From Paracoccaceae bacterium (lineage in GTDB: Bacteria > Pseudomonadota > Alphaproteobacteria > Rhodobacterales > Rhodobacteraceae), in NCBI GenBank assembly GCA_030066905.1, contig JASJAR010000008.1, positions 42,932 through 106,931 of the forward strand: a DNA stretch of 64,000 nucleotides, given 5' to 3'. Below are positions 4,280 through 52,652 of the stretch, piece by piece. Every line of letters starts with the position of its first letter. The stretch's first letter is position 1. The notes under the pieces were generated by a model that worked only from the letters and a program-made list of their open reading frames with translations, was not told where the DNA came from and did no database searches. The translations under genes and the position numbers were made by a program.

Positions 4280-4432
4280 CCCCCTCTGTCCTGTCGCCTG
4301 AGATCGTTATCCCGTCGGCGGGCGCGGCCGCGCCACTCTCCAGAGTCTGACCCCGCGACGGTCCTTTTGCCTGAGAGATTACCGGGGCGGTTGCTCCTTC
4401 GGCCCGGGGAGAGGCACCCCCCATGTCTCCCG
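4280..4432 (-). promoter_or_regulatory. tandem glycine riboswitch (two aptamers) in the gcvT leader
   Basis: The minus-strand RNA reads CGGGAGAC...CCGGGCCGAAGGAGCAACCGCCCCGGUAAUCUCUCAGGCAAAAGGACCG, then CUCUGGAGAGUGGCGCGGCCGCGCCCGCCGACGGGAUAACGAUCUCAGGCGACAGGACAGAG. These are two copies of the GGAGAG...CCGAAGG(A/G)GCAA...CUCAGGC(A/G)A(A/C)AGGAC signature, directly 5' of gcvT. Confidence 0.8.
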
Positions 4433-4515
4433 TCGCGAGACGAGTGGCGTGTAGCGCGGCTTGCCAGCCCGCACAAGCCATTGCGAAGGCGGGCGCTTCG
4501 GGGCAGGAGGGCGCG

Positions 4516-6524: not shown

Positions 6525-6588
6525 CTTCATCTTGGCGAAAATACCGCGGGGGAGGCGCGAACGCGCCGGGGGCGGAGCCCCCGTCTCC
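6525..6588 (-). repeat. family-2 hairpin repeat, intergenic copy (gltX 3' end / MATE leader)
   Basis: The minus strand reads GGGGGCtccGCCCCC GGCGCGttCGCGCC tCCCCGCGGTATTTTCGCCAAGATGAAG: two GC hairpins plus a T-run. It matches the copy inside xdhB (43135..43191) at about 26 of the 28 nt at the AAGATGAAG end, by eye, with the same hairpin layout. Confidence 0.7.
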
Positions 6589-6589
6589 A

Positions 6590-7915
6590 TCACCGCAACC
6601 CCGGCTTGACCTGCATGAGCGGCATCACATCGGCCATCTCCGGCCCCTTCGTGCGCCCCGTCACCGCGTGGCGGAGCGGCATGAAGAGCCCCCTGCCCTT
6701 GCGCCCGGTCGCCGCCTTCGCGGCAGAGGTCCAGGCCCCCCAGGTGTCGCCGTCATAGGGCGGCTCGCCGAGGAGCCCGAAGGCGGTTTCCACAAATGCC
6801 CGGTCCTCCTCGGCGACCTCCGGGATCGCGCCGCCCTCGAACACCTCCCACCAGCCATCGAGGTCCGAAAGCGTGGAGATGTTCTCCCGGCATACGGTCC
6901 AGAAATGAAGCTGAAGCGCGCCCGGAACGCCAAGGGCGTCGAGCTTGTCCTTGACCGCCGAGAGCGGCAGCCCCGCGAGGTGCCGGGCGGTCAGAGGCGC
7001 GAGATCGGCCTCGTCGAATTTCGTCGGCGCGGCCCCGAACCGGGCGATGTCAAAGCCCTCGACAAGCTCGGCGATCGAGCCCCGAAGTTCGACGGGGTCC
7101 GACGAGCCGAGCCGCGCCATCAGCGACAACAGCGCCATGGGTGCCACGCCCCGGGCCCGGAGGTCCCTGAGCGACAGGGTGCCGAGGCGCTTTGACAGCG
7201 CCTCCCCGCCGGGGCCCGTGAGAAGCGAGTGGTGGGCAAAGGCTGGGGGTGCTGCGCCAAGCGCCTCCATAATCTGAATTTGGGTCGCGGTGTTCGTCAC
7301 ATGGTCCGAGCCCCGTACGACATGGGTCACCCCCATTTCGGTGTCATCGACGACCGAGGCCAGGGTGTAGAGCACCTGCCCGTCCTGGCGGATGAGCACG
7401 GGGTCGGAGACCGATGCGGCGTCGATGGAGGTCTCCCCGAGGATGCCGTCTTTCCATTCGATCCGCGCATGATCGAGCTTGAAGCGCCAGACCCCCTGCC
7501 CCCGTTCGGCGCGGAGCTTGGCCTTTTCCTCGTCCGAAAGCGCCAGGGCGGCGCGGTCGTAGACCGGGGGCCGGCCCATGTTGAGTTGCTTCTTGCGCTT
7601 GAGATCGAGCTCGGTCGGTGTCTCGAAGGCCTCGTAGAACCGTCCCGCCGCGCGCAAAGTCTCGGCGGCGGCGGCGTAGCGGTCGAGCCGGGCGGACTGG
7701 CGCTCGACCCGGTCCCAGGTGAGGCCCAGCCAGTCGAGGTCTTCCATGATCGCGTCGGCGAACTCGGGCTTCGAGCGCTCGGGGTCGGTGTCGTCGAGCC
7801 TGAGGATGAAGGTGCCGCCGGCTTTCCGGGCGATGAGGTAGTTGAAAAGCGCGGTGCGGAGGTTGCCGATATGGAGGTAACCGGTGGGCGAGGGCGCAAA
7901 GCGGGTGACGGTCAT
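6590..7915 (-). CDS. gltX: glutamate--tRNA ligase (short, 441 aa type)
   Basis: Part of ORF 6590..8539(-). ATG at 7915 gives MTVTRFAPSPTGYLHIGNLRTALFNYL (HIGN class I signature), and ALSKRLG is the KMSKS-like motif. Confidence 0.9.
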   Translation of the reverse strand: MTVTRFAPSPTGYLHIGNLRTALFNYLIARKAGGTFILRLDDTDPERSKPEFADAIMEDLDWLGLTWDRVERQSARLDRYAAAAETLRAAGRFYEAFETPTELDLKRKKQLNMGRPPVYDRAALALSDEEKAKLRAERGQGVWRFKLDHARIEWKDGILGETSIDAASVSDPVLIRQDGQVLYTLASVVDDTEMGVTHVVRGSDHVTNTATQIQIMEALGAAPPAFAHHSLLTGPGGEALSKRLGTLSLRDLRARGVAPMALLSLMARLGSSDPVELRGSIAELVEGFDIARFGAAPTKFDEADLAPLTARHLAGLPLSAVKDKLDALGVPGALQLHFWTVCRENISTLSDLDGWWEVFEGGAIPEVAEEDRAFVETAFGLLGEPPYDGDTWGAWTSAAKAATGRKGRGLFMPLRHAVTGRTKGPEMADVMPLMQVKPGLR

Positions 7916-7978
7916 GGGAAGGCTCCTTCGGGCTCCCGGCTCTTTCACAGGGGCGCGGTTTTGTCCATATCGGCGGCC

Positions 7979-8383
7979 ATGCGATTTGCCGACGACACCG
8001 CCCCCGATGCGGCCGATTTCGAGGCCCTCGCCGGGGCCGCCCTCGCCGCGCTGCCGGAGGCGTTCCGCGATGCGGCCGCAAAGGTAGTGCTCCGGGTCGA
8101 GGATTTCGCTCCGGAGACGATCCTCGATGAAATGGGCATGGAAGACGCCTTCGAACTCACCGGGCTCTATGACGGCATCCCGCTCACCGAAAAGTCGGTG
8201 ATGGACCAGCCCCAGGGCCCCGACACGATCTGGCTTTTCCGCCGCCCGATCCTCGACGAATGGGCCGGCCGGGGCGATGTAACGCTGGGGGAGCTCGTCA
8301 CCCACGTGGTCGTCCACGAGCTGGCCCATCATTTCGGCTGGTCGGATGCGGATATCGCGACGGTGGATGAATGGTGGCGGTGA
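7979..8383 (+). CDS. zincin-like metallopeptidase family protein (DUF1025/Zincin_1-like)
   Basis: Tail of ORF 7229..8383(+). ATG at 7979 gives MRFADDTAPDAADFEALAG... and contains the HExxH motif VVHELAHHFGW. Confidence 0.65.
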   Translation: MRFADDTAPDAADFEALAGAALAALPEAFRDAAAKVVLRVEDFAPETILDEMGMEDAFELTGLYDGIPLTEKSVMDQPQGPDTIWLFRRPILDEWAGRGDVTLGELVTHVVVHELAHHFGWSDADIATVDEWWR

Positions 8384-8397
8384 GGGCGGGATCGAAC

Positions 8398-8577
8398 CGT
8401 TTTGGTCAGAATCGGGCGTTCGTTTGCCCGCCCCGATCCACAGCCCCCCCCCGCGTCCCGGGCTCGACCCGGGACCTCGATAGGCTTGGCTCTCCATTGG
8501 ATCGAGGCCCCGGATCAGGTCCGGGGCGCGTTTCGCCAAGGGCTGCCGGTGGAAGACCAGAGCGTCTCCTTCAGGCC
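8398..8577 (-). repeat. family-1 MITE-like double-hairpin repeat, copy 1
   Basis: The reverse complement aligns end to end with copies at 14044 and 18266. Shared parts are the hairpins CCCCGGAcctgaTCCGGGG and GTCCCGGGtcgagCCCGGGAC, the palindromic centre CCTCGAT...ATCGAGG, and imperfect TIRs (TTTTGG(C/T)C(T/A)GAA...). Confidence 0.8.
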
Positions 8578-8659
8578 AGTCACCCGCCTGGCCAAATGAA
8601 ACCCGCTTGCGCTGGTGGCGCTAACACCGCAGATAGGGAGTGCTGAGGAGGCCCGCGCC

Positions 8660-9610
8660 ATGCGCACCGACATTCTGACGATCACTTTGAACCCCACGGT
8701 CGACTTCGCGATGACCGCGCCGAAGATCGTCCCGGAGCTGAAACTGCGCTGTTCGGAGCCCCATGTGGACCCCGGCGGCGGCGGCATCAACGTCGCCCGG
8801 GCGATCCGGCTTCTGGGCGGTCAGGCGACGGCTCTCGTGGCCATCGGCGGGGCGACGGGGGCGCATCTTCTGCAACTTCTGGCCCTTGAGGGCGTGCCCA
8901 CGGTGGCCTTTCAGGGCCCCGGCGAAACCCGCCAATCGACCTCCGTCATCGATCTGTCGACGAAGGACCAGTTCCGTTTCGTCACGCCCGGCCCGGCCTG
9001 GCATCAGGAAGACGTGGACCGGGGCCTGCGCTCCATCGACCAGGCCGCGGGCGACGGCACGCTCGTGGTGCTCTCGGGCAGCCAGCCGCCGGGGGTCGCG
9101 AAGGATTTCCCCTCGATCCTGGCCGATCACGTCCGCGACCGGAAAGCCGAACTCATCGTCGACACCTCGGGGCCGGCGCTGTTTCACCTCGCCGAAGGGC
9201 CCCATGAAGCGGTCGCGGTGCTGAGAATGGACGGGCCCGAAGCCGAGGAGCTTGCGGGACGGGCGCTGCCGAACCGGGCCGATACCGCCGATTTCGCGCA
9301 GGAGCTTGTGAAACGGGGCGTGGCCCGGATCGTGATCGTCGCCCGCGGTGCCGACGGCTCGGTGATGGCCTCGGCGGACGGGCGCTGGCACGCGGTCGGC
9401 CCGGCGGTGGAGGTGATCTCGAAGGTCGGCGCGGGCGACAGTTTCGTCGGCGCCTTTGCCTATAGCCTCGCCCTGGGAGAACCGCTCCCCGACTGCCTCG
9501 CCCATGGGGTCGCCTCGGCGAGTGCGTCGGTGACGACCGAGGCGACACGGCTTTGCGAGCCGGAGACGGTGGCGGCGCTTAGAGCGGAGACCAAGGTGGA
9601 GGCGGTGTGA
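8660..9610 (+). CDS. PfkB-family sugar/hexose-phosphate kinase (1-phosphofructokinase / PfkB-2 like)
   Basis: ORF 8615..9610(+). ATG at 8660 gives MRTDILTITLNPTVD. Motifs GGGGINVARA and the C-terminal GAGDSFVGAF are the PfkB signatures. Confidence 0.75.
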   Translation: MRTDILTITLNPTVDFAMTAPKIVPELKLRCSEPHVDPGGGGINVARAIRLLGGQATALVAIGGATGAHLLQLLALEGVPTVAFQGPGETRQSTSVIDLSTKDQFRFVTPGPAWHQEDVDRGLRSIDQAAGDGTLVVLSGSQPPGVAKDFPSILADHVRDRKAELIVDTSGPALFHLAEGPHEAVAVLRMDGPEAEELAGRALPNRADTADFAQELVKRGVARIVIVARGADGSVMASADGRWHAVGPAVEVISKVGAGDSFVGAFAYSLALGEPLPDCLAHGVASASASVTTEATRLCEPETVAALRAETKVEAV

Positions 9611-9612
9611 GG

Positions 9613-9664
9613 CGGTATCCGCGCGCGGATACCGTGCCGGATATCGCGCGCGATATCCGGTTTT
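9613..9664 (+). terminator. twin perfect GC palindromes plus T-run (likely terminator of the kinase gene)
   Basis: CGGTATCCGCGCGCGGATACCG (9613-9634) is followed by CCGGATATCGCGCGCGATATCCGG (9637-9660) and then TTTT (9661-9664), 3 nt after the stop codon. Confidence 0.6.
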
Positions 9665-9680
9665 AATGTGGGAACAACGT

Positions 9681-10428
9681 CTACCAACCAGTCAGATTTG
9701 CATCCAGGTTAGTCGCTAGCGGATGACGGCTCAGAAACCGCTTGATCAGAACTTGACGAGCCTCCTCCGTATTCAAATCAAGAAGAATTCTACGTCACCA
9801 AAAATACTATTAACCAAAAAGCACCGATTAGGATTGGTACGAAGAATGAAAATACATTACCGCGCCGGCCGATACTGCTGCGTGACCCCGCTCCTTTGAT
9901 TGCTGGCAAAAGGCCAATTGGGTCAATCAAGTCTCGAACTCCGCGCGGCAAACATCTTTCTCCCTCGGGCCCGTCATATCTTGTTCGCCACTTCCTCACA
10001 GTCCTGCTCACGGCCTCTTGAGCAGCTAGAATACTAATGAAAGACACAACAGAAACCAATATCCCCGTCACAGAAAACGCAAAATTCACCATCCGTTGCG
10101 CTTCATCCATTCGACCTTGCGTGAGCGCAAATGCGGTGAAGAGGAAGGCTTGTAGTGTAACCAGCCAAGTAGTTCTTCAATTCACCAAAGTATCTTCGTG
10201 AACAACCTTTTCTCGATAGAGCTTGTAAATTTCGATTGATTCAGGTGTGAGAAATTTCTCTACATCGCTCATATTGCTTGATAGTAGCAATTTTGGTCGA
10301 TTGGGATAACTGACCTCAACAGGGTCGGAAAAGGTATCCTTCCACCACCGAACAACCCGGTTATTTTTGATAATGTTCAAGATCACCTCCGAGATCAGAT
10401 ACATACGATACTTCAATCTGAAAGACAA
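9681..10428 (-). pseudogene. disrupted gene for a ~245-aa 3-TM membrane protein of unknown family (listed as ORFs 10177..10428 and 9790..10110)
   Basis: Both listed ORFs are in the same frame: 10111..10176 is 66 nt, open, and encodes RTTWLVTLQAFLFTAFALTQGR. They are separated only by the TGA at 10177-10179. After the TAG at 9790, the +1 frame continues as RILLDLNTEEARQVLIKRFLSRHPLATNLDANLTGW to TAG at 9681. The codon usage is AT-rich. Confidence 0.4.
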
Positions 10429-12556: not shown

Positions 12557-13996
12557 ATGACAGCATTCGCGACAGCGCTTCGGCGGGCCGGGGCGACAGG
12601 GATTGTGATCGTTCTGGCGGCGGGTATCGCCGCGGCGCAATCGGACGAGGTCGTCACCAAGCAGTATGACGACGGCGGCGTCTATCAGGGCACTTTCCGG
12701 GACGGCAAGCAGCACGGCACCGGCACCTACCGGCTGCCCAACGGCTATGTCTATACCGGCGACTGGGTGGACGGCGAGATTCGCGGCCAGGGCCGCGCGG
12801 AGTTTCCGAACGGCTCGGTCTACGAGGGCGAATTCGCCGCCGGCAAGCCCGAGGGCCGGGGCAAGATCACCTTCGCCGACGGCGGCACCTACGAGGGCGA
12901 ATGGGTCGATGGCAAGATCACCGGGACCGGCGTGGCGATTTACGCCAACGGGGTGCGCTATGAGGGCGGGTTCGTCGATGCGCTCCATGACGGACAGGGC
13001 CGGATGGAAAGCCCCAACGGCTATGTCTACGAAGGCCAGTGGGCCGGCGGGATCAAAGAGGGCAACGGCCGGATCACCTACCCGGACGGTGCGGTCTACG
13101 AGGGCGACCTGGTGCGCGGGGCGCGCGAGGGGCGCGGCACGCTGACGATGCCCGACGGGTTGACCTATGTCGGCGAATGGGCCGACGGACAGATCAACGG
13201 CACGGGCCGGCTGACCCAGCCAAATGGCGATGTCTACGAGGGCGAGCTTGTCGACGGCAAACGCCAGGGGACGGGCCGGGTGGTCTACGCCAACGGCGAT
13301 GTCTATGAAGGCACTTTCGAGAACGACCGCCGCCACGGCACCGGAACCTTTACCGGCACCGACGGCTATCTCTACACCGGTGCCTGGGTCGAAGGCCGGA
13401 TCGAGGGCGACGGCACGGTGACCTACCCCGACGGGTCGGTCTATGTCGGCACGTTCAAGGACGATCTCGCCGACGGGAGGGGCATGATCACCTATCCCGA
13501 CGGCAACACCTATGAAGGCGAATGGAAGGCCGGGGTGATCGAGGGCCAGGGCAAGGCGACCTATTCCAACGGGCTCGTCTACGAGGGCGGGTTCCGCAAC
13601 GCGCAGATGCACGGGGAAGGCACGATGACCTTCGCCGACGGCTACCGCTACGAAGGCGAATGGCAGGACGGCCAGCGCTGGGGGACGGGCACGGCCACCT
13701 ATTCCGACGGCACGGTTTACGAGGGCGGCTTCGTCGCCGGCCAGCGCGAGGGGATGGGGACGATCACCATGCCCGACGGCTTCACCTATACCGGCGCCTG
13801 GGTCGACGGCGAGATCGAAGGCCAAGGGGTAGCGACCTATGCCAATGGCGATGTCTATGAGGGGATGTTCGCCGCCGGCAAGCGCCAGGGGGAAGGGACG
13901 ATCCGCTATGCGAGCGGAGAGGTCCAGAGCGGGACCTGGACGAATGGGGCGTTGACGGAGCCTGCGGAGGAAGAACCGGCGACCGAGAGCCAGTAG
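12557..13996 (+). CDS. secreted MORN-repeat protein
   Basis: 479 aa with signal-like N-terminus MTAFATALRRAGATGIVIVLAAGIAAAQS. This is followed by about 19 tandem 23-aa units of the form Y.G.(W/F).(D/N)G...G.G.... Confidence 0.85.
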   Translation: MTAFATALRRAGATGIVIVLAAGIAAAQSDEVVTKQYDDGGVYQGTFRDGKQHGTGTYRLPNGYVYTGDWVDGEIRGQGRAEFPNGSVYEGEFAAGKPEGRGKITFADGGTYEGEWVDGKITGTGVAIYANGVRYEGGFVDALHDGQGRMESPNGYVYEGQWAGGIKEGNGRITYPDGAVYEGDLVRGAREGRGTLTMPDGLTYVGEWADGQINGTGRLTQPNGDVYEGELVDGKRQGTGRVVYANGDVYEGTFENDRRHGTGTFTGTDGYLYTGAWVEGRIEGDGTVTYPDGSVYVGTFKDDLADGRGMITYPDGNTYEGEWKAGVIEGQGKATYSNGLVYEGGFRNAQMHGEGTMTFADGYRYEGEWQDGQRWGTGTATYSDGTVYEGGFVAGQREGMGTITMPDGFTYTGAWVDGEIEGQGVATYANGDVYEGMFAAGKRQGEGTIRYASGEVQSGTWTNGALTEPAEEEPATESQ

Positions 13997-14050: not shown

Positions 14051-14222
14051 GGCCTGAACGGGCCGTTCGGGTCTTGCTCCGGCAGCGCTTGGCGAAACAC
14101 GCCCCGGACTTGATCCGGGGCCTCGATCCACCGGAGTGCCAGGCCTGTCGAGGTCCCGGGTCAAGCCCGGGACGCGGGTTACTTGGGGTCGGGGCGCGCA
14201 GAATGAACGTCCGCTCCTGGCC
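14044..14222 (+). repeat. family-1 MITE-like repeat, copy 2 (reference orientation)
   Basis: cggttttggcctgaacgggccgttcgggtcttgctccggcagcgcttggcgaaacacGCCCCGGActtgaTCCGGGGCCTCGATccaccggagtgccaggcctgTCGAGGTCCCGGGtcaagCCCGGGACgcgggttacttggggtcggggcgcgcagaatgaacgtccgctcctggcc. Confidence 0.85.
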
Positions 14223-14529: not shown

Positions 14530-16056
14530 TTATACCCGCGCGCCCTGGTCCATGCGCCGCAGAAAGGCCTCGGCATCCTCCAAAACCTGCGCCCGGCGGT
14601 CCTCCTTCATCCGGTCCCAGGTGCCGTACATATTCGCCATCCGCGGGTTCTTGGAAAACCGCGCCCGATGCCGGTCGAGAAACGCCCAGTAGAGGAGGTT
14701 GAAGGGGCAGGCCCCCTCCCCGAGCTTCGTCTTCACGTCATAGGCGCAGCCGTCGCAATAATTCGACATCTTGGCGATGTAGTTACCCGAAGACACGTAG
14801 GGTTTTGAGGCCACCACCCCGCCATCGGCAAACTGGCTCATGCCGATCACGTTCGGGGCTTCGACCCATTCATAGGCGTCGGCATATACGGCGAGATACC
14901 AGTCGTGGACCTCCGAGGGGTCGATGCCCGCCAGAAGCGCGAAATTGCCGGTCACCATCAGCCTTTGGATGTGGTGGGCATAGGCCTCCTCCATCGTCTG
15001 GGTGACGGTCTCGGCGATGCAGGCCATGTCGGTGGCCGCGTCCCAGTAGAACTCGGGCAGCGGGCGGGTGTGGTTCAGAACGTTGCGGGAGGTGTAATCG
15101 GGGCCTTCGCGGAAATAGATGCCGCGGATGTATTCGCGCCAGCCGATGATCTGGCGGATGAAGCCTTCGACGGCGTTAAGGGGGGCATCGCCCGCGCGGT
15201 AGGCAGCTTCGGCGGCCTTGCAGACCTCCAACGGATCGAGGAGGCCGGCGTGGATGTAAAGCGACGTGATCGAGTGGTAGAGGAAGCGCTCGCCGGTGAG
15301 CATCGCGTCCTGGTAGTCGCCGAAGTGCGGGAGGGCGTGGGTCACCCAATGGGCGAGCGCGCGTTTGGCTTGGCCGGACTCGACGGCGAACCAGAACGGG
15401 CGAAGGTCCCCGTAGTTCGAGCCGAAGCGGTCTTCGACGAGGGCGAGGACCTCTTCGGTGGTCTCGTCCGGCGTAAACTCCATCGGACCCTTGTGAGAGA
15501 CCCCGTCGGGCGCGGGTTTGCGGTTTTCCGCGTCGTAGTTCCACTTGCCGCCCTCGGGGGCGTCGCCGTCCATCAGGAGCCCGGTTTTCCGGCGCATGTC
15601 GCGGTAGAAGTACTCCATGCGGAGGTCTTTGCGGCCATCGGCCCAGGCCTCGAACTCGGCGTGGGAGGCGAGGAAGCGGTCGTCTTCGAGAAGGGTGACG
15701 TCAAGCGGCGCCTCTTCGAGGGCGGCAATGAGGCGGTGCTCGCCGGGTTCGGTGGCGAGCGCCGCGCTCACCCCGTGCTTGTCGGCGTAGCGGAGAAGCT
15801 CGCCGGGGATCGAGCCGGTGTTATCGCCGTCGTCGAGCTTGGTGTATTCGACCTGCCAGCCGTCGTCCCTGAGCCGCGCCGCGAAATGGCGCATCACCGA
15901 GAAGATGAAGGCGATCTTCTTGGGGTGGTGAGGGACGTAGGTCGCTTCGTCGGCGACCTCGGCCATGACGACGATGTCGGAGCCCTTGTCGGCGGCTTTG
16001 AGCGCGGCGATGGCTGACGTGCATTGGTCGCCGAGAACGAGGATCAGCCGGCTCAC
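14530..16056 (-). CDS. cryptochrome/photolyase family protein, FeS-BCP / CryB / (6-4) PhrB type
   Basis: 508 aa starting MSRLILVLGDQCT. The C-terminal Cys cluster region YCDGCAYDVKTKLGEGACPFNLLYWAFLDRH is typical of the Fe-S bacterial cryptochrome/photolyase clade. Confidence 0.85.
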   Translation of the reverse strand: MSRLILVLGDQCTSAIAALKAADKGSDIVVMAEVADEATYVPHHPKKIAFIFSVMRHFAARLRDDGWQVEYTKLDDGDNTGSIPGELLRYADKHGVSAALATEPGEHRLIAALEEAPLDVTLLEDDRFLASHAEFEAWADGRKDLRMEYFYRDMRRKTGLLMDGDAPEGGKWNYDAENRKPAPDGVSHKGPMEFTPDETTEEVLALVEDRFGSNYGDLRPFWFAVESGQAKRALAHWVTHALPHFGDYQDAMLTGERFLYHSITSLYIHAGLLDPLEVCKAAEAAYRAGDAPLNAVEGFIRQIIGWREYIRGIYFREGPDYTSRNVLNHTRPLPEFYWDAATDMACIAETVTQTMEEAYAHHIQRLMVTGNFALLAGIDPSEVHDWYLAVYADAYEWVEAPNVIGMSQFADGGVVASKPYVSSGNYIAKMSNYCDGCAYDVKTKLGEGACPFNLLYWAFLDRHRARFSKNPRMANMYGTWDRMKEDRRAQVLEDAEAFLRRMDQGARV

Positions 16057-18265: not shown

Positions 18266-18444
18266 CGGTTTTGGGCTGAAGCGGACGTTCGGGTCATGCT
18301 CCGGCAGCTCTTGGCGAAACACGCCCCGGACTTGATCCGGGGCCTCGATCGACCGGAGCGCCAAGACTATCGAGGTCCCGGGTCAAGCCCGGGACGCGAG
18401 TCACTTGGGGTCGGGGCGCGCAGAATGAACGCCCGCTCAAGGCC
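18266..18444 (+). repeat. family-1 MITE-like repeat, copy 3
   Basis: Near-identical in layout and length to copy 2, with the same two hairpins, centre and ends. Confidence 0.85.
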
Positions 18445-20255: not shown

Positions 20256-20266
20256 GGCATTACCCC

Positions 20267-20377
20267 CTGCCCCGGGCTTGGCCCTGGGCCTTGATCCTAT
20301 GGAGCGCTCCATTTGTTCGAGGCCCCGGGTCAAGCCCGGGGCGGGGTTGCAAGGTCGGCGGCGTCGCGCCAAAGGCC
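20267..20377 (+). repeat. family-1 repeat, copy 4 (left arm missing, diverged)
   Basis: ctgCCCCGGGcttggCCCTGGGCCTTGATcctatggagcgctccatttgtTCGAGGCCCCGGGtcaagCCCGGGGcggggttgcaaggtcgg... starts 12 nt after the leuA stop. Confidence 0.65.
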
Positions 20378-27105: not shown

Positions 27106-27296
27106 GGCCGGGCGGGCCTTCCCGCTCCGTCTCTGCCCCCGCTTTCCCCCGAACACACCGCGTCCCGGGCTTTACCCGGGACATCTATGAGCTCTTCGCT
27201 CCGGTGCGCCCGGGCCCCGGATCACGTCCGGGGCGTGGATCGCTCAAAGGGCAACCGGCGCGGTCCTTCGTCGAGCGGCAATACCCGTCCAAGGTC
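27106..27296 (-). repeat. family-1 repeat, copy 5 (diverged arms)
   Basis: cgcGTCCCGGGctttaCCCGGGACatctatgagctcttcgctccggtgcgcccggGCCCCGGAtcacgTCCGGGGCgtggatcgctcaaagggc... begins right after the stop at 27105. Confidence 0.7.
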
Positions 27297-33938: not shown

Positions 33939-36900
33939 CTACGCCACGTCTTCGACCGCCGCCACACCGGGGAGCGACTTCAGCGCCGAGCGGATCTCGG
34001 GCGTCATCGGCCAGCCGTCGCCGAGCTCGATATCGACCTCGCCGACGGGCAGGCCGAGAGGCGCGATCCGCACCTCGCCCCGGCCCCTGACGGCGGCATC
34101 TTCGCGGTAGCGGTCGAGGAGCGAGCGCACCGAGACGGCGCCTTCGGGCGCATCGATGAAGACCCGCACCGCCATGTCGCCAGCATCGGCGGCTACCGTG
34201 TCGAGCGGAGTGACCGAGCGGGCCACGGGGTCGAAGCCGCCGTCGTTGAAGCGGGCCTCCAGCGTCATCACCACGCGCAGGCCCTGTTCGAAGACCCTGC
34301 GCGACGCCTCGAAGTCTTCGGGGAACAGCGCCATGCCCGGCACCGTGAGCGTGGGGTCGGAGATCGTCATCCGGAAGAACCGCGTCCCCCGGCCCGATTT
34401 CCGGTCCTGGAGCCCCGAGACCATCACCCCGACCCGGCCCACGGCCCCGCCGTCGCGCTCGGCCTTGTCGCGAAGCTCGGCCAGCGTCGTGCAGCCCTTC
34501 CGCTTGAGTGCCGCGAGATAATCGTCGAGCGGGTGGCCGGAAAGGTAAAAACCCACCGCCTCGTGCTCGGCTTCCAGCCGGTCGGAGGCGAGCCAGTCCT
34601 CGGCCGGCGAGAGCCGCGGCTCGGGGAGGTCGTCGCCGGCCTCGCCGAAAAGCGAGACCTGGGCCGAGGCGCGCTGGTCGTGGATGGCGGCCGAATAGGC
34701 CGTCAGCGCATCGAGGCTCTGGAAAACCCGGGCGCGGTTCGGGTCGAGCTCGTCGAAGGCCCCGGCCCTGCTGAGCATCTCAAGCGGCCGCTTGCCGATG
34801 CGGCGAAGGTCCACCCGGCGGGCGAAGTCGAAGAGCGTGGCGAAGGGTTTGTCTGGGGTAGCCCCGCCCTGGACCTGATCCGGGGCCTCGTGCGGACCGT
34901 CGCGCCCGGTGGCACGGGGCCCCTGCTCTGCGGCCGGGGCGGGGCGAGCTTGGCGGCGGGCCTCGACGATGAGCCGCATCGCCTCGACCCCGACATTCTT
35001 CAACGCCCCCAAAGCATAGACGATTCTGCCGTCCGCGACCGAGAACATCGCCTCGGAGCGGTTCACGCAAGGCGGCACGATCTCGATCCCGAGCCCGCGC
35101 CGCACCTCCTCGGCATAGACGGCAAGCTTGTCGGTCAGATGGAGGTCGCAGTTCATGACGCCGGCCATGAACTCCACGGGGTGGTTGGCCTTGAGCCAGG
35201 CCGTCTGGTAGCTGACCACGGCATAGGCCGCGGCGTGGGATTTGTTGAAGCCGTAATTGGCGAACTTGTCGAGGAGGTTCCAGACCTCCAGCGCCTTCTT
35301 CTCGTCGACGCCGTTATCCTTGGCACCTGCGAGGAATTTCGGGCGTTCGGCATCCATCGCGGCCTGGATCTTCTTGCCCATTGCCCGGCGCAGAAGGTCC
35401 GCACCGCCCAAAGAATAGCCGGCCATCTTCCGGGCGATCTCCATCACCTGTTCCTGGTAGACGATGATGCCTTGCGTCTCGTCGAGGATGGGATCGATCA
35501 ACGGGTGGATGCTCTCGCGCTCGGCCCGGTCGTTCTTGACGTCGCAATATTTCGGGATGTTCTCCATCGGCCCCGGGCGGTAGAGCGCGACGAGGGCAAC
35601 GATGTCTTCGATTGAGGTGGGTTTCATCCGCACCAGGGCATCCATCATGCCCGAGCTTTCCACCTGGAAGACGGCGACGGTCTTGGCGGCGGAATAGAGC
35701 TCGTAGGTCTTTTCGTCGTCGAGCGGGATCGCGTTGATGTCGAGTTCAACTCCGCGTTCGGCCAGAAGGTCGAGGGCGTTCTGGATCACGGTCAGCGTCT
35801 TCAGCCCGAGAAAGTCGAACTTCACAAGGCCGGCCTGCTCGACCCATTTCATGTTGAACTGGGTTGCGGGCATGTCCGAGCGGGGGTCCTGGTAGAGCGG
35901 GACGAGCTTGTCGAGCGCGCGGTCGCCGATCACCACACCGGCGGCATGGGTGGAGGCGTTGCGCAAGAGACCTTCGACCTGGGCGCCGTAGGTCAGGAGC
36001 CGGTCGACGACCTCTTCGGCCTTGGCCTCTTCGCGAAGACGCGGCTCGTCGGCCAGGGCTTTCTCGATGGAAACGGGCTTCACCCCTTCGATGGGGATGA
36101 GCTTCGAGAGCCGGTCGACCTGGCCGTAGGGCATTTGCAGCACCCGGCCGATGTCGCGGACGGCGGCTTTCGACAGGAGCGCGCCGAAAGTGATGATCTG
36201 GCCGACCCGGTCGCGGCCGTATTTCTCCTGCACGTAGGCGATGACCTCTTCACGGCGGTCCATGCAGAAGTCGATGTCGAAGTCGGGCATCGAGACCCGT
36301 TCGGGGTTGAGGAACCGTTCGAAGAGGAGGCCGTAGCGCAAGGGGTCGAGATCGGTGATGGTGAGTGCATAGGCCACAAGCGAGCCCGCGCCCGAGCCCC
36401 GGCCGGGGCCGACGGGGATGCTTTGGTCCTTGGCCCATTTGATGAAGTCGGCGACGATCAGGAAGTAGCCCGGAAAGCCCATGCCTTCGATGACACCGAG
36501 TTCGTAGTCGAGCCGGGCCTCGTACTCGGCGAGGGGTGCGGCGGGCTCGATGGCCGCAAGGCGGGCGGTCAGGCCGTCGCGGGCCTGTTTGCGGAGTTCC
36601 TCGACCTCGTTTTCGGCGAATTTCGGCAGGATCGGGTCGTGGCGGGAGACGGCAAAGGCGCAGCGGCGGGCGATTTCGATGGTGTTCAGGGTTGCCTCGG
36701 GGAGGTCGGCGAAGAGGGCGGCCATTTCGGCGGGCGACTTGAAGTAGTGCTGCGGCGTGAGGCGGCGGCGGGGGGCCTGCTGGTCGACGTAAGCCCCTTC
36801 GGCGATGCAGATGAGCGCGTCATGGGCCTCGTACATCGAGGGCTCCGGGAAATAGACGTCGTTGGTGGCCACGAGCGGGAGGGCCTTTTGGTAGGCCAGC

Positions 36901-40258: not shown

Positions 40259-40411
40259 GTCCCCCCGCCCTGGATCGAAGATGCACCCGTTCCGGGCTCT
40301 GCGCGGGACCTCGATCTGCCCAGCGCGCGATGGGATCGGGGCCGCGGATCGGGGCCGGGGCAGGTCGCGCCGGGCGTCGTCGGCCTCAAGCGAGAGCACC
40401 AGAGACCGGCC
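40259..40411 (-). repeat. family-1 repeat, copy 6 (degenerate)
   Basis: cccgttccgggctctgcgcgggacCTCGATctgcccagcgcgcgatgggATCGGggccgcggatcggggccgggg..., with the arm ...caagcgagagcaccagagaccggcc. It is recognisable only by alignment to copy 1. Confidence 0.45.
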
Positions 40412-40591: not shown

Positions 40592-41989
40592 ATGGAGATC
40601 AGCTTTCGCCTCAACGGCGAAGACGTCGTGGTGGCGGACCAGCCGTCCACGCGGACGCTTCTCGACTGGCTGCGCGAGGACCGGGGCCTTGCCGGCACCA
40701 AGGAGGGCTGCAACGAGGGCGATTGCGGGGCCTGTACGGTGATGGTCACCGACGAGGGCGGCGCCCGGGCGCTCAACGCCTGCATCCTGTTCCTGCCCCA
40801 GCTTCACGGGAAGGCGGTGCGCACGGTCGAAGGCATTGCGGGGCCGGACGGCACCCTCCATCCGGTGCAGGAGGCGATGGTCGCCCACCACGGCAGCCAA
40901 TGCGGGTTCTGCACGCCGGGATTTGTGGTGTCGATGGCGACGGCGCATCTCAACGGGCGGCGGGATTTTGACGATGCGCTGGCGGGGAACCTCTGCCGGT
41001 GTACCGGGTATGCGCCGATCGTGCGGGCGGCGGAGGCGGCGGCGGACGCACCGGTGCCCGAGTGGATGCGGGATGAGGTGCCGGGGGTGCACAAAGGGGT
41101 GGTGGGTGAACCTGCGCCGCCGGCGCAGGACCACCCACCCTACCTTCCCGATCATAGCGACGGGCTGGCCGAATGGTATGCCGCCCATCCCGAGGCGACG
41201 CTCATTGCCGGGGCGACCGATGTGGGGCTCTGGGTGACGAAGGAGCTTCGCGACCTCGGGCCGGTGGCCTTCCTGAACCGCTGTGAAGACCTAAAGACCA
41301 TCGAGGAGCGGGGCGACCGGCTCTGGATCGGCGCGGGAGCGACGATGGCCGCCGTGCTGGGCGCGGTCCGCGACCGCTTTCCCTCCTACGCCGAGATGAT
41401 CCGCCGCTACGGCTCGGACCAGGTGCGGCAGGCCGCGACCATCGGCGGCAACATCGCCAACGGCTCGCCCATCGGGGACAACCCGCCGCCGCTTATCGCC
41501 ATGGGCGCGGTGTTGCATCTGCGCAGGAAGGACGCCCGCCGGGAGATGCCGCTCGAGGCTTTCTTCCTCGACTACGGCAAACAGGACCGCGAGCCCGGCG
41601 AGTTCGTCGAGGCCGTGACGATCCCGGCCGAGGCGCCCGACCTCAGGGTCTACAAGCTCTCGAAGCGGTTCGATCAGGATATCTCGGCGGTTTGCGGGGC
41701 TTTCAACCTGACCGTCGAGGGCGCGCGCGTGACCGAGGCGCGGATCGCCTTCGGCGGGATGGCGGGCATCCCGAAACGGGCCGCCGCCGTCGAGGCCGCG
41801 CTCATCGGCGCGCCCTGGACCGACGCGACGGTGCGGGCGGCGATGGAGAGGATCGGCGAGGATTTCACGCCGCTGTCGGATATGCGCGCCTCGGCCGCCT
41901 ACCGGTTGGAGGCGGCGGCCAACATGCTCCTGCGTTACTTCCACGACCGGAGCGGGGCGCCCGTCGAAGTGCTGGAGGTAACCCCGTGA
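40592..41989 (+). CDS. xdhA: xanthine dehydrogenase small subunit (2Fe-2S + FAD)
   Basis: 465 aa. Contains [25 protein letters not shown] and CRCTGY, plus an FAD-binding domain. Confidence 0.9.
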
Positions 41990-44409
41990 GCGTGGCGAAA
42001 CCGCTGCCGCATGACGCAGCACGGCTCCATGTGACGGGGGCGGCGCGCTATGTCGACGACATTCCGACCCCGGCAGGCACCTTGCATCTGGCTTTCGGGA
42101 CCTCCGAGATCGCCCATGGGCGGATCGTGGCGATGGACCTCAACGCCGTTCGGGCCGCTCCGGGGGTCGCTCTGGTGGTGACGGCCGAGGACTTGCCGTT
42201 CGCCAACGACGTCTCCCCGTCGCCCGCGCCCGAGCCGCTTCTGGCCACGGGCGAGGTGCATTTCATGGGCCAGCCGCTCTTTTTGGTCGTGGCCGAGAGC
42301 CATCTGGCGGCGCGGAAGGCGGCGCGGTTGGCGAAGGTCGAGTACGAGGAACGCCCGGCGATCCTCAGCATCGACGAGGCATTGGCGGCGGGGTCGCGGT
42401 TCGAGGAAGGCCCCCGGGTCTATGCGCGCGGCGATGCCGCAGGGGCGATTGCCAAGGCAGTCCATGTGCTCGAGGGCTCGGTCGAGATCGGCGGGCAGGA
42501 GCATTTCTACCTCGAAGGCCAGGCCGCCCTCGCCTTGCCGCATGAGGGGGGCGATATGGTCGTTCACTCCTCCTCCCAGCATCCCACCGAAATCCAGCAC
42601 AAGGTGGCCGATGCGCTGGGTCTGCCGATGAACGCGGTGCGCTGCGAGGTCAGGCGGATGGGCGGCGGGTTCGGCGGCAAGGAGAGCCAGGGCAATGCGC
42701 TGGCTTGCGCCGCGGCGGTCGCGGCCCGGGCGACCGGGCGGGCCTGCGCGATGCGCTACGACCGCGACGACGACATGGTAATCACCGGCAAGCGCCACGA
42801 TTTCCGCATCGATTACCGGGTCGGGGTGGATGCCGGGGGACGGATCGAGGGGATCGAGTTCGTCCAGCTTTGCCGCTGCGGTTGGAGCATGGATTTGTCC
42901 CTGCCCGTCGCCGACCGGGCGATGCTTCATGCCGACAATGCCTATTATCTCCCAAACGTGCGGATCGAGAGCCACCGGCTTCGGACCAACACCCAGTCGG
43001 CCACGGCATTCCGGGGGTTCGGCGGGCCCCAGGGCATGTTCGGGATGGAGCGGGTGATGGACCATATCGCCCATGCGCTCGGGATGGACCCTGTCGCGCT
43101 TCGGCGGGCGAATTACTATGAGGCGGCCCGGGGAGGGGGCGCTGCCCCCGCGCCTGACGGCGCCCCCCGCGGTATTTCGGCCAAGATGAAGACCGGAGCG
43201 GAGCTTACAAGCCGCGCCGCCGCGCCGGGGACGGGGCGACGGTATGGGGGGGCCTATTCGCCGGAGAATGCCCGGCCGCGGACCCTGACCCCCTATCACA
43301 TGGAGGTGGAGGATTTCATTCTCCATGACCTGACGGAGCGGTTGCTTGCAACGTCGGACTACCGGGCGCGCGCCGAGGCGGTGGCGGCGTTCAATGCCGG
43401 AAATGCGGTGTTGAAAAAGGGGATCGCCTTCAGTCCGGTGAAGTTCGGGATTTCGTTCACGCTCACCCATCTCAATCAGGCGGGTGCCCTCGTCCACGTC
43501 TACCAGGACGGGTCGGTCCACATGAACCACGGCGGCACCGAGATGGGTCAGGGGCTCTTTCAGAAGGTCGCCCAGGTGGCCGCGGCGCGGTTCGGGGTGG
43601 AGGTGGACCGGGTGAAGATCACCGCGACCGATACCGGCAAGGTGCCGAACACGTCTGCGACGGCGGCCTCGTCAGGCTCGGACCTTAACGGGATGGCGGT
43701 GCAGGCGGCCTGCGACACGATCCGCGACCGGCTGGCGGCCTTCGTCGCCGAGGGATACCAGGCCGACCCGGCTACGGTGCGATTCGAGGACGGGAAGGTC
43801 CATGTGGGCGGCGAGGCGCTGGCCTTCGAGGCGGTCGTGAAGGACGCCTATATGAACCGGATCTCGCTCTCGGCCACCGGCTTCTACAAGACCCCGAAGA
43901 TCGTCTGGGACCGGATCAGGGGCGAGGGCCGGCCGTTCTTCTACTTCGCCTATGGGGCGGCGGTGACCGAGGTGGTGATCGACACGCTGACCGGGGAGAA
44001 CCGGATCTTGCGCGCCGACATTCTCCACGATTGCGGGGCGAGCCTGAACCCCGCGCTCGATATCGGCCAGATCGAGGGGGGCTATGTGCAGGGCGCGGGC
44101 TGGCTGACGACGGAGGAACTCGTGTGGGACGGCAAGGGCCGGCTTCGGACCCATGCGCCCTCGACCTACAAGATCCCCGCCTGTTCGGACCGGCCGGACA
44201 TCTTCAACGTGGCACTTTGGGACGGCGCGAACCGGGAGGAGACGGTCTATCGGTCGAAGGCGGTGGGCGAGCCGCCCTTGATGCTGGGGATTTCGGCCTG
44301 GTTGGCGCTGTCGAACGCCTGCGCCGCCGCGGGGCCCGGCTGGCCCGACCTGCAAGCGCCGGCGACACCCGAGGCGGTGCTGGCCGCTGTGACCCGGGCG
44401 CGGGCGTGA
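41986..44409 (+). CDS. xdhB: xanthine dehydrogenase molybdopterin-binding subunit
   Basis: The GTG at 41986 overlaps the xdhA stop and gives [27 protein letters not shown]. Also contains GGGFGGKES and the C-terminal [11 protein letters not shown]. Confidence 0.92.
43135..43191 (+). repeat. family-2 hairpin repeat embedded in frame in xdhB
   Basis: GGGGGCgctGCCCCC GCGCCtgacGGCGC CCCCCGCGGTATTTCGGCCAAGATGAAG is translated as [19 protein letters not shown]. It is the reverse complement of the intergenic copy at 6525..6588. Confidence 0.6.
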
Positions 44410-45380: not shown

Positions 45381-45562
45381 CGGTTTGGCCTGACGCGGAG
45401 GTTCCTCGGTCCGCGCCGATCTTAAGACCGTCGCGTCCCGGGCCTGACCCGGGATCTCGACAGGCTTGGCACTCCGGGACGTCGGGGGCCCGGATCAGGT
45501 CCCGGGCGTGGGTGGTCGGTTGCCGCAGGCGGCACCGCGGCCCTGTTGAGGCCAAAAGAACG
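45381..45562 (-). repeat. family-1 repeat, copy 7
   Basis: cggtttggcctgacgcggaggttc...cgcGTCCCGGGcctgaCCCGGGAtCTCGAcaggcttggcactccgggacgTCGgGGGCCCGGAtcaggTCCCGGGCgtgg...ttgaggccaaaagaacg. Confidence 0.8.
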
Positions 45563-52492: not shown

Positions 52493-52652
52493 GGCCTTTT
52501 GCCCACGCTGGCCGAACCCGGCGACATGCGCCCCGGACGTGATCCGGGGCCTCGATTGGCTTGGCACTCCGGTGGGTCGGGGCCCCGGATCACGTCCGGG
52601 GCGTGTATCGCTAGGGCTTTGGAACGCGCAGAATGAACGTCGGCCCAAGGCC
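52493..52652. repeat. family-1 repeat, copy 8 (symmetrised variant: both hairpins CCCCGGAygtgaTCCGGGG type)
   Basis: gcGCCCCGGAcgtgaTCCGGGGCCTCGATtggcttggcactccggtgggTCGGGGCCCCGGAtcacgTCCGGGGCgtg...gcgcagaatgaacgtcggcccaaggcc. Confidence 0.75.

Follow-up and report, generated by a model that had tools for sequence, protein, structure and literature searches.

Evidence for a Rhodobacterales hairpin repeat read in frame within the inter-domain linker of XdhB

Results

An in-frame repeat copy in xdhB

We have studied a GC-rich palindromic repeat that lies inside the xdhB gene of a Paracoccaceae bacterium, within a stretch of 64,000 nucleotides (contig JASJAR010000008.1, positions 42,932 to 106,931) that we term the window. 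The gene (41986-44409, plus strand) has a GTG start codon and encodes 807 residues, and its product matches the XdhB protein of Rhodobacter capsulatus (1jro_B) with E = 0. Three Pfam domains were found, Ald_Xan_dh_C at residues 17-124, MoCoBD_1 at 144-377 and MoCoBD_2 at 453-737; residues 378-452 constitute the linker between the last two, and the repeat copy sits inside it. Translation of the open reading frame (ORF) reveals no break across the repeat, and the deduced protein is 100% identical to an NCBI entry annotated as XdhB, from a Paracoccaceae metagenome-assembled genome (MAG). An initial annotation of this DNA had placed a repeat in frame in xdhB, and is borne out by the intact 807-residue frame and the identical database protein.

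The copy comprises 57 nt (43135-43191, plus strand), corresponding to codons 384-402 and read as 19 amino acids. It is made up of three modules. The first is a hairpin, H1, at 43135-43149 (GGGGGC-GCT-GCCCCC, GGGGGCGCTGCCCCC) that encodes G384-P388 (GGAAP). This is followed at 43150-43163 by a variable palindrome, H2 (GCGCC-TGAC-GGCGC, GCGCCTGACGGCGC), encoding A389-A393, and at 43164-43191 by a conserved tail (CCCCCGCGGTATTTCGGCCAAGATGAAG; nhmmer E 2.5e-7 to 5.9e-7) encoding P394-K402 (PRGISAKMK). The rest of the linker (43192-43281, T403-R432) lies outside the repeat, and consists of the peptide modules C and then B that are described below.

A second copy occupies positions 6525-6582 on the minus strand, with the tail at 6525-6552, H2 at 6554-6567 (GGCGCGTTCGCGCC) and H1 at 6568-6582 (GGGGGCTCCGCCCCC). 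This copy is intergenic. The genes on both sides are read from the minus strand, and 2 nt separate the copy from the upstream open frame (6590-8620), which extends to its stop codon. The two copies have the module order H1, H2, tail CCCCCGCGGTATTTnnGCCAAGATGAAG in common, as had been proposed, and differ in the sequence of H2. Just two occurrences of a core, CCCCGCGGTATTTnnGCCAAGATGAAG, were found in the 64 kb, at 43165-43191 (plus) and 6525-6551 (minus); none was expected in 100 dinucleotide-preserving shuffles, and shorter pieces of the core are also restricted to these two places in the window. This core plus one more shared C upstream accounts for the 26/28 identity that had been reported between the copies, and a repeat search returned the pair as a 47-nt inverted repeat with 79% complementarity. 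Profiles constructed from 61 and from 120 family members (see below) matched these two copies and nothing else in the window, which is the extent of the source genome examined; the 120-copy tail profile gave E = 5.9e-7 at 43164-43191. Read in the sense direction, the element is free of stop codons in two frames out of three.

The repeat had originally been considered to extend over about 160 nt, with the 80 nt or so following the tail as a possible second, degenerate tandem copy. The region 43192-43281 was tried as such a candidate. The element profile found no match there even at E ≤ 1000, and in 951 kb of comparison DNA the region gave weak matches only, to the xdhB linkers of loci L008 and L012 (E of 0.14 and 2.9). 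We conclude that it is not a second copy, its modules having been seen only in XdhB linkers, and that the site holds one copy of 57 nt.

How does this relate to the length of the protein? The XdhB of R. capsulatus has 777 residues, confirming the figure given earlier, and the window protein aligns with it over residues 1-400 and 432-806. The unaligned residues 401-431 correspond to modules C and B. The element-encoded part aligns with the R. capsulatus linker ERGGLSAPPSPPEPIATK. The 30 or so additional residues are those of C and B and not, as had been supposed, those of the element. At the level of the peptide, the linker of the crystallized R. capsulatus protein is likely to be a relic of the same module.

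An AlphaFold model of XdhB gave a pLDDT (its per-residue confidence score) below 50 for residues 382-429, with one helical turn of three residues as the only secondary structure. With a mean pLDDT of just 63 the model is of low overall quality, and it points weakly to a structurally permissive position of the copy between the domains.

A family of modular hairpin repeats

Is the repeat confined to the window? A narrow exact pattern, GCGGTATTTnnGCCAAGATGAAG, was scanned against one genome per species, revealing six copies in an Aliiroseovarius MAG and a single copy in Rhodobacter sp. Har01, with a G5/C5 hairpin upstream in all cases. A looser pattern, CCCC-N3-6-TATTT-N4-CMRGATGAAG, gave at least 120 copies in metagenome contigs. 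The statistics of the family that follow refer to the 120 matches listed. H1 is present upstream in 113 of these, where 61 are of a single and 52 of a twin type. The match between the two window copies is evidently not unique to those loci, and the proposal of an interspersed repeat family has been upheld.

The architecture of the family is as follows. An optional 5′ part, the hairpin H0 (TTTCGCC..GGCGAcCG), precedes H1, which has the form G5-7 C, a loop of 3-7 nt, and G C5-7. After H1 come either 3-8 nt (61 copies) or H2 (52 copies), and then the tail, with the consensus CCCCC(G)(GAGG/GGAG/GGGA/GCGG)TATTT-N4-C(A/C)(A/G)GATGAAG. The xdhB sequences 43135-43149 and 43164-43191 conform to H1 and tail, respectively. 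The H1 loops of the 113 copies fall into types, namely CGCTG (37), CCAG (19), CTCTG (11), TTTCA (5), CTGTCTG (4) and others, and the copy in xdhB has the CGCTG loop that is the commonest in the family.

H2 is diverse in sequence yet palindromic, with a mean best perfect stem of 6.4 against 3.1 in shuffled sequences. Subfamilies of H2 (TCTTGGCC..GGCCAATTCA, TCTTCGCC..GGCGAATTCA and TCCCGGCC..GGCCGGTTCA) preserve the stem by paired changes, for example TTGGCC/GGCCAA, TTCGCC/GGCGAA and CCGGCC/GGCCGG. Palindromes beyond chance expectation, with stems kept by paired changes, indicate that the hairpin itself matters, whether as DNA or as RNA. Beyond GATGAAG nothing but G-richness is conserved, with a Shine-Dalgarno-like run in about a third of copies, and we therefore place the end of the element at GATGAAG.

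Rfam covariance models found nothing at the gathering threshold in the vicinity of the two window copies, and only noise (E = 6) over 43080-43320. No published description of the family was found in the literature on Rhodobacteraceae, Rhodobacterales, Rhodobacter or Paracoccus. As judged by these sequence comparisons the repeat is a very abundant, modular, GC-hairpin interspersed family of the Rhodobacterales (Paracoccaceae/Roseobacteraceae), and apparently one that has not been described.

The gene context of the 120 listed copies was analyzed using a crude gene finder based on codon composition. A stop codon on the sense strand lies within 150 nt upstream of H1 in 48 copies, mostly at a distance of 3-50 nt, while the stop codon of a convergent gene lies within 150 nt past the tail in 28, of which 17 are no more than 12 nt away. 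Typically, a copy of the family is found within a few dozen bases past a stop codon, in the space separating co-directional or convergent genes.

Eighteen long ORFs running across a copy passed the codon-composition filter. Ten had no Pfam match, four had translations that by eye indicated real genes starting past the element, and three appeared spurious by eye. The remaining one, in L055, is a true host, and is again xdhB.

We also observed copies at an orthologous intergenic site 3′ of dnaE that has kept the element in different genera, in L008 (2894-2950), L010 (2213-2260) and L135 (4673-4742). The tail is near-identical in L008 and L010 (GGAGTATTTTTGCCAGGATGAA) and has diverged in L135, and the H1 and H2 modules are different in all three. 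Turnover of modules in situ is thus not peculiar to xdhB.

The XdhB linker in orthologous proteins

We aligned 120 XdhB orthologues, with lengths between 757 and 837 residues. The stretch from NYY to TTPYxxxVEDF is hypervariable, and a motif-based count gave linkers of 6-65 residues, in keeping with the variable length anticipated for this segment. The shortest extreme is illustrated by L136 (P0058), with the minimal linker GQGRAT. Three peptide modules can be recognized. Module A, GG(L/G)SAPR...PP(E/R)(D/G)IS(G/A)(Q/K/E)MK, is the translation of the element. Module B, PGTG(K/R)R(F/Y)GG..SP...GP, is the commonest linker, and is typical of a class of XdhB of 780 residues. Module C has the form ..D(L/I)(A/T)SRG(A/V).... 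The linker of the window protein has the order A, short C, B.

H1-like and tail-like peptides occurred together in 33 of 120 linkers in a first search, and in 20 of 62 complete linkers in a second set. About a third of Rhodobacterales XdhB orthologues bear a peptide derived from the element at the linker site.

Some further features of the linkers were noted. The peptide of module C (..GDLASRGAASAVRQEVRMPAQPPGV and variants) has been conserved between distant XdhB lineages (P0050, P0086, P0010, P0025, P0047 and others). Its partner may be A or B, and it precedes B in the window (A-C-B) and follows it in P0086 (B-C). Module B was considered as the same element read in another frame or orientation, and no convincing DNA match could be seen by eye. 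Three entries, P0163, P0170 and P0239, are XdhB ORFs of 462-483 residues on contigs of 148-346 kb, in which the frame is lost, or the ORF ends, within or just past the element-derived linker; P0239 has apparently two element-like stretches. Splitting of the gene, decay to a pseudogene or an error of assembly at the repeat could each account for them.

Recurrence at the xdhB site

The linkers of ten xdhB genes were read at the level of DNA, those of the window, L008-L014, L055 and L135. Nine contain the element. The exception, L014, has a linker of module B only, and is the sole member of the 780-residue class read as DNA. In L135 (Ovoidimarina sediminis) H1 is the GGGGGCGCTGCCCCC of the window, combined with a different H2 (GCCGGCCCGGGGCCGGC). 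L008, L009 and L013 share the H1 sequence GGGGGGCCGTCTGCCCCCC, which is followed by GCCCTGCGGGC as H2 in L008, by GCTCGCCGGAGGCGAGC in L009 and by no H2 in L013. L012 has GGGGGGCTGTCTGCCCCCC as H1 and GTCCCTCCGGGAC as H2. H2 is also absent from L010 and L055, where H1 is GGGGGGCCAGCCCCCC and GGGGGTTTCACCCCC, respectively. Lastly, L011 has the arrangement found in the window, with both hairpins decayed and the gene intact.

The xdhB copies thus present five types of H1 (CGCTG, CCGTCTG, CTGTCTG, CCAG and TTTCA), all of which are also discrete types among intergenic copies. Their H2 sequences are unrelated, yet still pair, with the exception of the decayed L011. Moreover, one and the same H1 DNA, GGGGGGCCGTCTGCCCCCC, yields GGPSAPR on translation in L009 and GGRLPPE in L013. 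Use of the same DNA in two frames indicates that what is conserved is the DNA element, and not the peptide.

These data bear on a simpler explanation, that the linker has no origin in a repeat, being an old, fast-evolving sequence of low complexity whose resemblance to the element at 6525 arose by chance or by local gene conversion. The linker is indeed hypervariable and rich in glycine, alanine and proline; there is a similar peptide in R. capsulatus, and the tails of the xdhB copies are alike between genomes. However, at least 120 unrelated metagenome contigs share this architecture with several named genomes, nearly always outside genes. Those matches are not fragments of xdhB, since just one of the 120 listed is xdhB. 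An exact core of 25 bases unexpected by chance, the reading of one H1 sequence in different frames in different orthologues, and the five discrete H1 types common to xdhB and intergenic copies are equally at odds with a plain linker. We regard this explanation as highly improbable.

Could the copy have been put into xdhB by a repeat-induced chimera during assembly? The window derives from a MAG, and many XdhB proteins in the databases are truncated near the linker, although the list was biased toward partial proteins by the query. Yet the frame is intact and its flanks are collinear with 1jro_B, and the same in-frame arrangement is present in independent assemblies, on contigs of 254-961 kb. 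The copy in O. sediminis, whose assembly is not labelled as a MAG, also argues against an artefact. The chance that the arrangement is of this kind seems to us negligible.

When did the xdhB copies acquire their present modules? In a neighbor-joining tree calculated without the linker, the loop types are distributed patchily among close relatives. The genes closest to the window xdhB, those of L009 and L008 (83% and 82% nucleotide identity), have a different H1 loop, H2 and tail variant. The xdhB of L011 is more distant (76% identity overall, 53% at third positions), and here the modules are more alike than the genes, agreeing with the window at 53 of 60 nt in a manual count from the codon listing. 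For three of seven genomes, the best match of the xdhB tail is a non-xdhB copy in the same genome, with similarities of 0.93 in the window, 0.97 in L012 and 0.81 in L013; in L012 the xdhB tail GAGGATATTTCCAAGGCAAAGGCAG may be compared with GAGGATATTTGCAAGGCAAAGGCAG 7 kb away. With p ~ 0.07 by our own binomial estimate, this suggests concerted evolution without establishing it.

Copies in other coding sequences

The element is also found in two other genes. In L013 an antisense copy (9091-9145) lies in frame inside xdhA (8601-10004), in the linker between the Fe-S and flavin adenine dinucleotide (FAD) domains (SIDLQISSGGPGGRQPPG). The xdhA gene call keeps all four Pfam domains despite the copy, which is missing from the other seven xdhA genes compared. 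In L010 a copy at 14563-14610 encodes the C-terminal 17 residues of an ABC ATPase whose gene lies downstream of xdhC. The same ATPase/permease junction carries an intergenic copy in L009 (7137-7177) and L093 (~1985-2070), and is empty in L011 (~11740). At this junction the tail together with the bases that follow forms AAGGAG, 7-8 nt before the ATG of the permease.

Does the copy act as a terminator?

On the sense strand the copy had been described as resembling an intrinsic terminator. A simple terminator scan did not flag the xdhB copy at 43135-43191, where the hairpins are followed by three T, and at the intergenic copy only a 5-bp stem plus TATTTTCGCC was flagged. Across the family the T-run of the tail is 3-5 bases. 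Calculated folding energies are no better than those of shuffled sequences (z of +0.72 and -0.06), although this is uninformative in DNA so rich in GC. The terminator character of the xdhB copy is weak and unconvincing, and that part of the initial annotation was not sustained.

The hairpins could nevertheless be functional within xdhB in other ways. They might cause the ribosome to pause between the cofactor-binding domains, assisting co-translational folding or XdhC-dependent insertion of the cofactor, or adjust the amount of full-length xdhB(C) message by way of attenuation or processing, and be kept by selection. Only one of the xdhB copies examined lacks an intact H1, and the H2 stems pair although their sequences differ. 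About a third of the orthologues retain the module exactly at the domain boundary, and the family occurs at positions typical of post-transcriptional elements, that is, the 3′ ends of genes and intercistronic junctions. Against this, the module is missing from about two thirds of the orthologues, linker length varies from 6 to 65 residues, and close relatives are not alike. In L011 the hairpins have decayed while the gene is intact, and the xdhB copy has neither a terminator signature nor a folding energy better than that of shuffles. On balance we think it unlikely that the hairpins serve xdhB in this manner.

Other features of the window

A larger repeat (family 1, the present repeat being family 2) is a long palindrome of ~90-130 nt, CCCCGGAnnTGATCCGGGGCCTCGAT...ATCGAGGCCCCGGATCAnnTCCGGGG, which we observed at nine sites in the window: 8453-8541, 14099-14187, 18321-18409, 20265-20348, 27160-27248, 34852-34890, 40287-40375, 45433-45521 and 52528-52616. 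Several of its copies are bounded by CTTGGCGAAAC / GTTTCGCCAAG, containing the TTTCGCCAAG that ends the family 2 copy at 6525-6536, a resemblance that may point to an end motif common to both families. The window also contains tandem glycine riboswitch aptamers at 4284-4442 on the minus strand (Rfam RF00504, 65 and 37 bits), and a coding tandem array at 12737-13874 with a period of 69 nt, encoding MORN-like repeats of the type PNGYVYxGxWxxG.

Discussion

The sequence 43135-43191 belongs to an interspersed family, and is read in an intact frame at an inter-domain position. It recurs there in orthologues, with conservation of the DNA and not of the peptide. Taking all the data together, we consider it likely that this is one copy of a Rhodobacterales hairpin repeat, read in frame in the inter-domain linker of XdhB. 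Having two open sense frames, the element could be read through as a peptide rich in glycine, alanine and proline, which would lengthen the linker and leave the enzyme unbroken. The copy would then be a tolerated passenger, and not a working terminator. It may have entered an ancestral xdhB long ago, and have since been partly inherited vertically, partly lost, often by deletion, and partly replaced module by module. Such replacement may have taken place repeatedly, either by gene conversion with other genomic copies or by re-insertion.

A number of observations weigh against this reading. No transposase or target-site duplication was found, and none of 113 copies had an inverted match of at least 9/10 between its ends. 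The one junction available in filled and empty form (L010, L009 and L093 compared with L011) permits a target-site duplication of at most 2 nt (GA). Mobility is thus deduced from distribution only. The sole truly intragenic copy among the 120 sampled metagenome copies listed is once more in xdhB (L055), which would be expected of an old resident copy or of a hotspot more readily than of frequent random insertion in frame. In four of seven genomes the xdhB tail is no closer to copies of its own genome than to those of others, and the xdhB tails are alike between genomes, with a mean of 0.80; much of the tail pattern may be plain vertical descent. Finally, a neutral passenger need not have intact hairpins in all copies examined but one, and their preservation may reflect selection on DNA or RNA.

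A more elaborate scheme would make the xdhB linker, and perhaps that of xdhA too, a specific and recurrent site of landing or gene conversion for a new kind of hairpin element, at which H1, H2 and tail are exchanged in situ. Selection would act on the element at the levels of both RNA and protein, and the element would serve as an intercistronic junction that can be carried from place to place. An overlapping start and stop (ATGA) and a run resembling a ribosome-binding site are combined in the tail AAGATGAAG, after which GGAG or GGGG is often found. The xdhB ORFs that are truncated or frameshifted at the linker on long contigs (P0163, P0170 and P0239) hint at the splitting or re-coupling of genes. 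If the scheme were correct, the element could split or re-couple genes at domain boundaries. We view it as doubtful, and prefer the tolerated passenger of ancient entry.

How does the repeat compare with known systems? The palindromic elements of Rickettsia (RPEs) were reportedly first described by Ogata et al. in 2000 and 2002. Several precedents exist for repeats of this kind. Palindromic repeats in frame are known as RPEs in Rickettsia (PMC10969869) and as QMITEs in Coxiella (PMC5896051). REPs are known inside genes, and two Xanthomonas species have unlike REPs at approximately the same position in recB (PMC3733652). Terminator-like interspersed repeats are represented by SPRITE (PMC3049150). 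In its behavior the present element falls in with these classes.

It resembles the RPEs in being short and palindromic, in occupying intergenic sites as well as ORFs, where read-through in frame adds a peptide, at a position probably compatible with the fold in the present case, and in having unrelated housekeeping genes as hosts. However, RPEs are about 100-150 bp long and AT-rich, and belong to obligate intracellular bacteria in which a large fraction is intragenic (PMC10969869), whereas the present element is about 45-90 bp, extremely GC-rich, and found in free-living Rhodobacterales. It is nearly always extragenic (1/120 listed is intragenic), and the intragenic copies concentrate in the xdh operon (xdhB, xdhA). 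Since size and composition are so grossly different, and set the element apart by description, we would expect no similarity of sequence and do not claim membership in RPE-1 to RPE-10.

The likeness to REPs and BIMEs lies in the small GC-rich stem-loops, the apparently high copy number and the mosaic combination of modules, as well as in the placement past the ends of coding regions, in the spaces that separate unidirectional or convergent ORFs (PMC3733652). Occasional intragenic copies are a further similarity, and the Xanthomonas recB case parallels the recurrent site in xdhB (PMC3733652). Unlike the GTAG/CGTC REPs, the element has no tag beside its hairpin; within 6 nt of H1, CGTC and GACG were each present in 2 of the 113 copies among the matches listed, and GTAG in none. 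It also has a long, asymmetric, conserved tail (..TATTT-N4-CAAGATGAAG), which REPs do not have. No RAYT gene turned up in the short loci examined, where no search aimed at RAYT was made, and no Rhodobacterales genus is named in the REP survey (PMC3733652). The lack of terminal inverted repeats and of clear direct repeats distinguishes the element from MITEs.

In its terminator-like appearance and placement at the 3′ ends of genes the element recalls the terminator-like interspersed repeats, but its T-run is of 3-5 bases, at least about 10 nt from H1, and the xdhB copy was not flagged. The C-terminal residues and stop codon of the ABC ATPase in L010 are supplied by a copy of the element, much as QMITE2 does in enhC.

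The presence of such a repeat in XdhB has some practical consequences. Annotators should be cautious, as the linker peptides are not features at the level of the protein. The linker is probably a naturally permissive insertion site between two domains that bind the molybdenum cofactor, which could be of use in protein engineering. For the Rhodobacterales themselves, the finding would represent a case of 'selfish DNA inside a protein', in the manner of the RPEs, in free-living GC-rich bacteria and in a well-studied enzyme. More generally, the family marks the 3′ ends of genes and the junctions of operons, and is thereby a candidate for post-transcriptional or termination roles.

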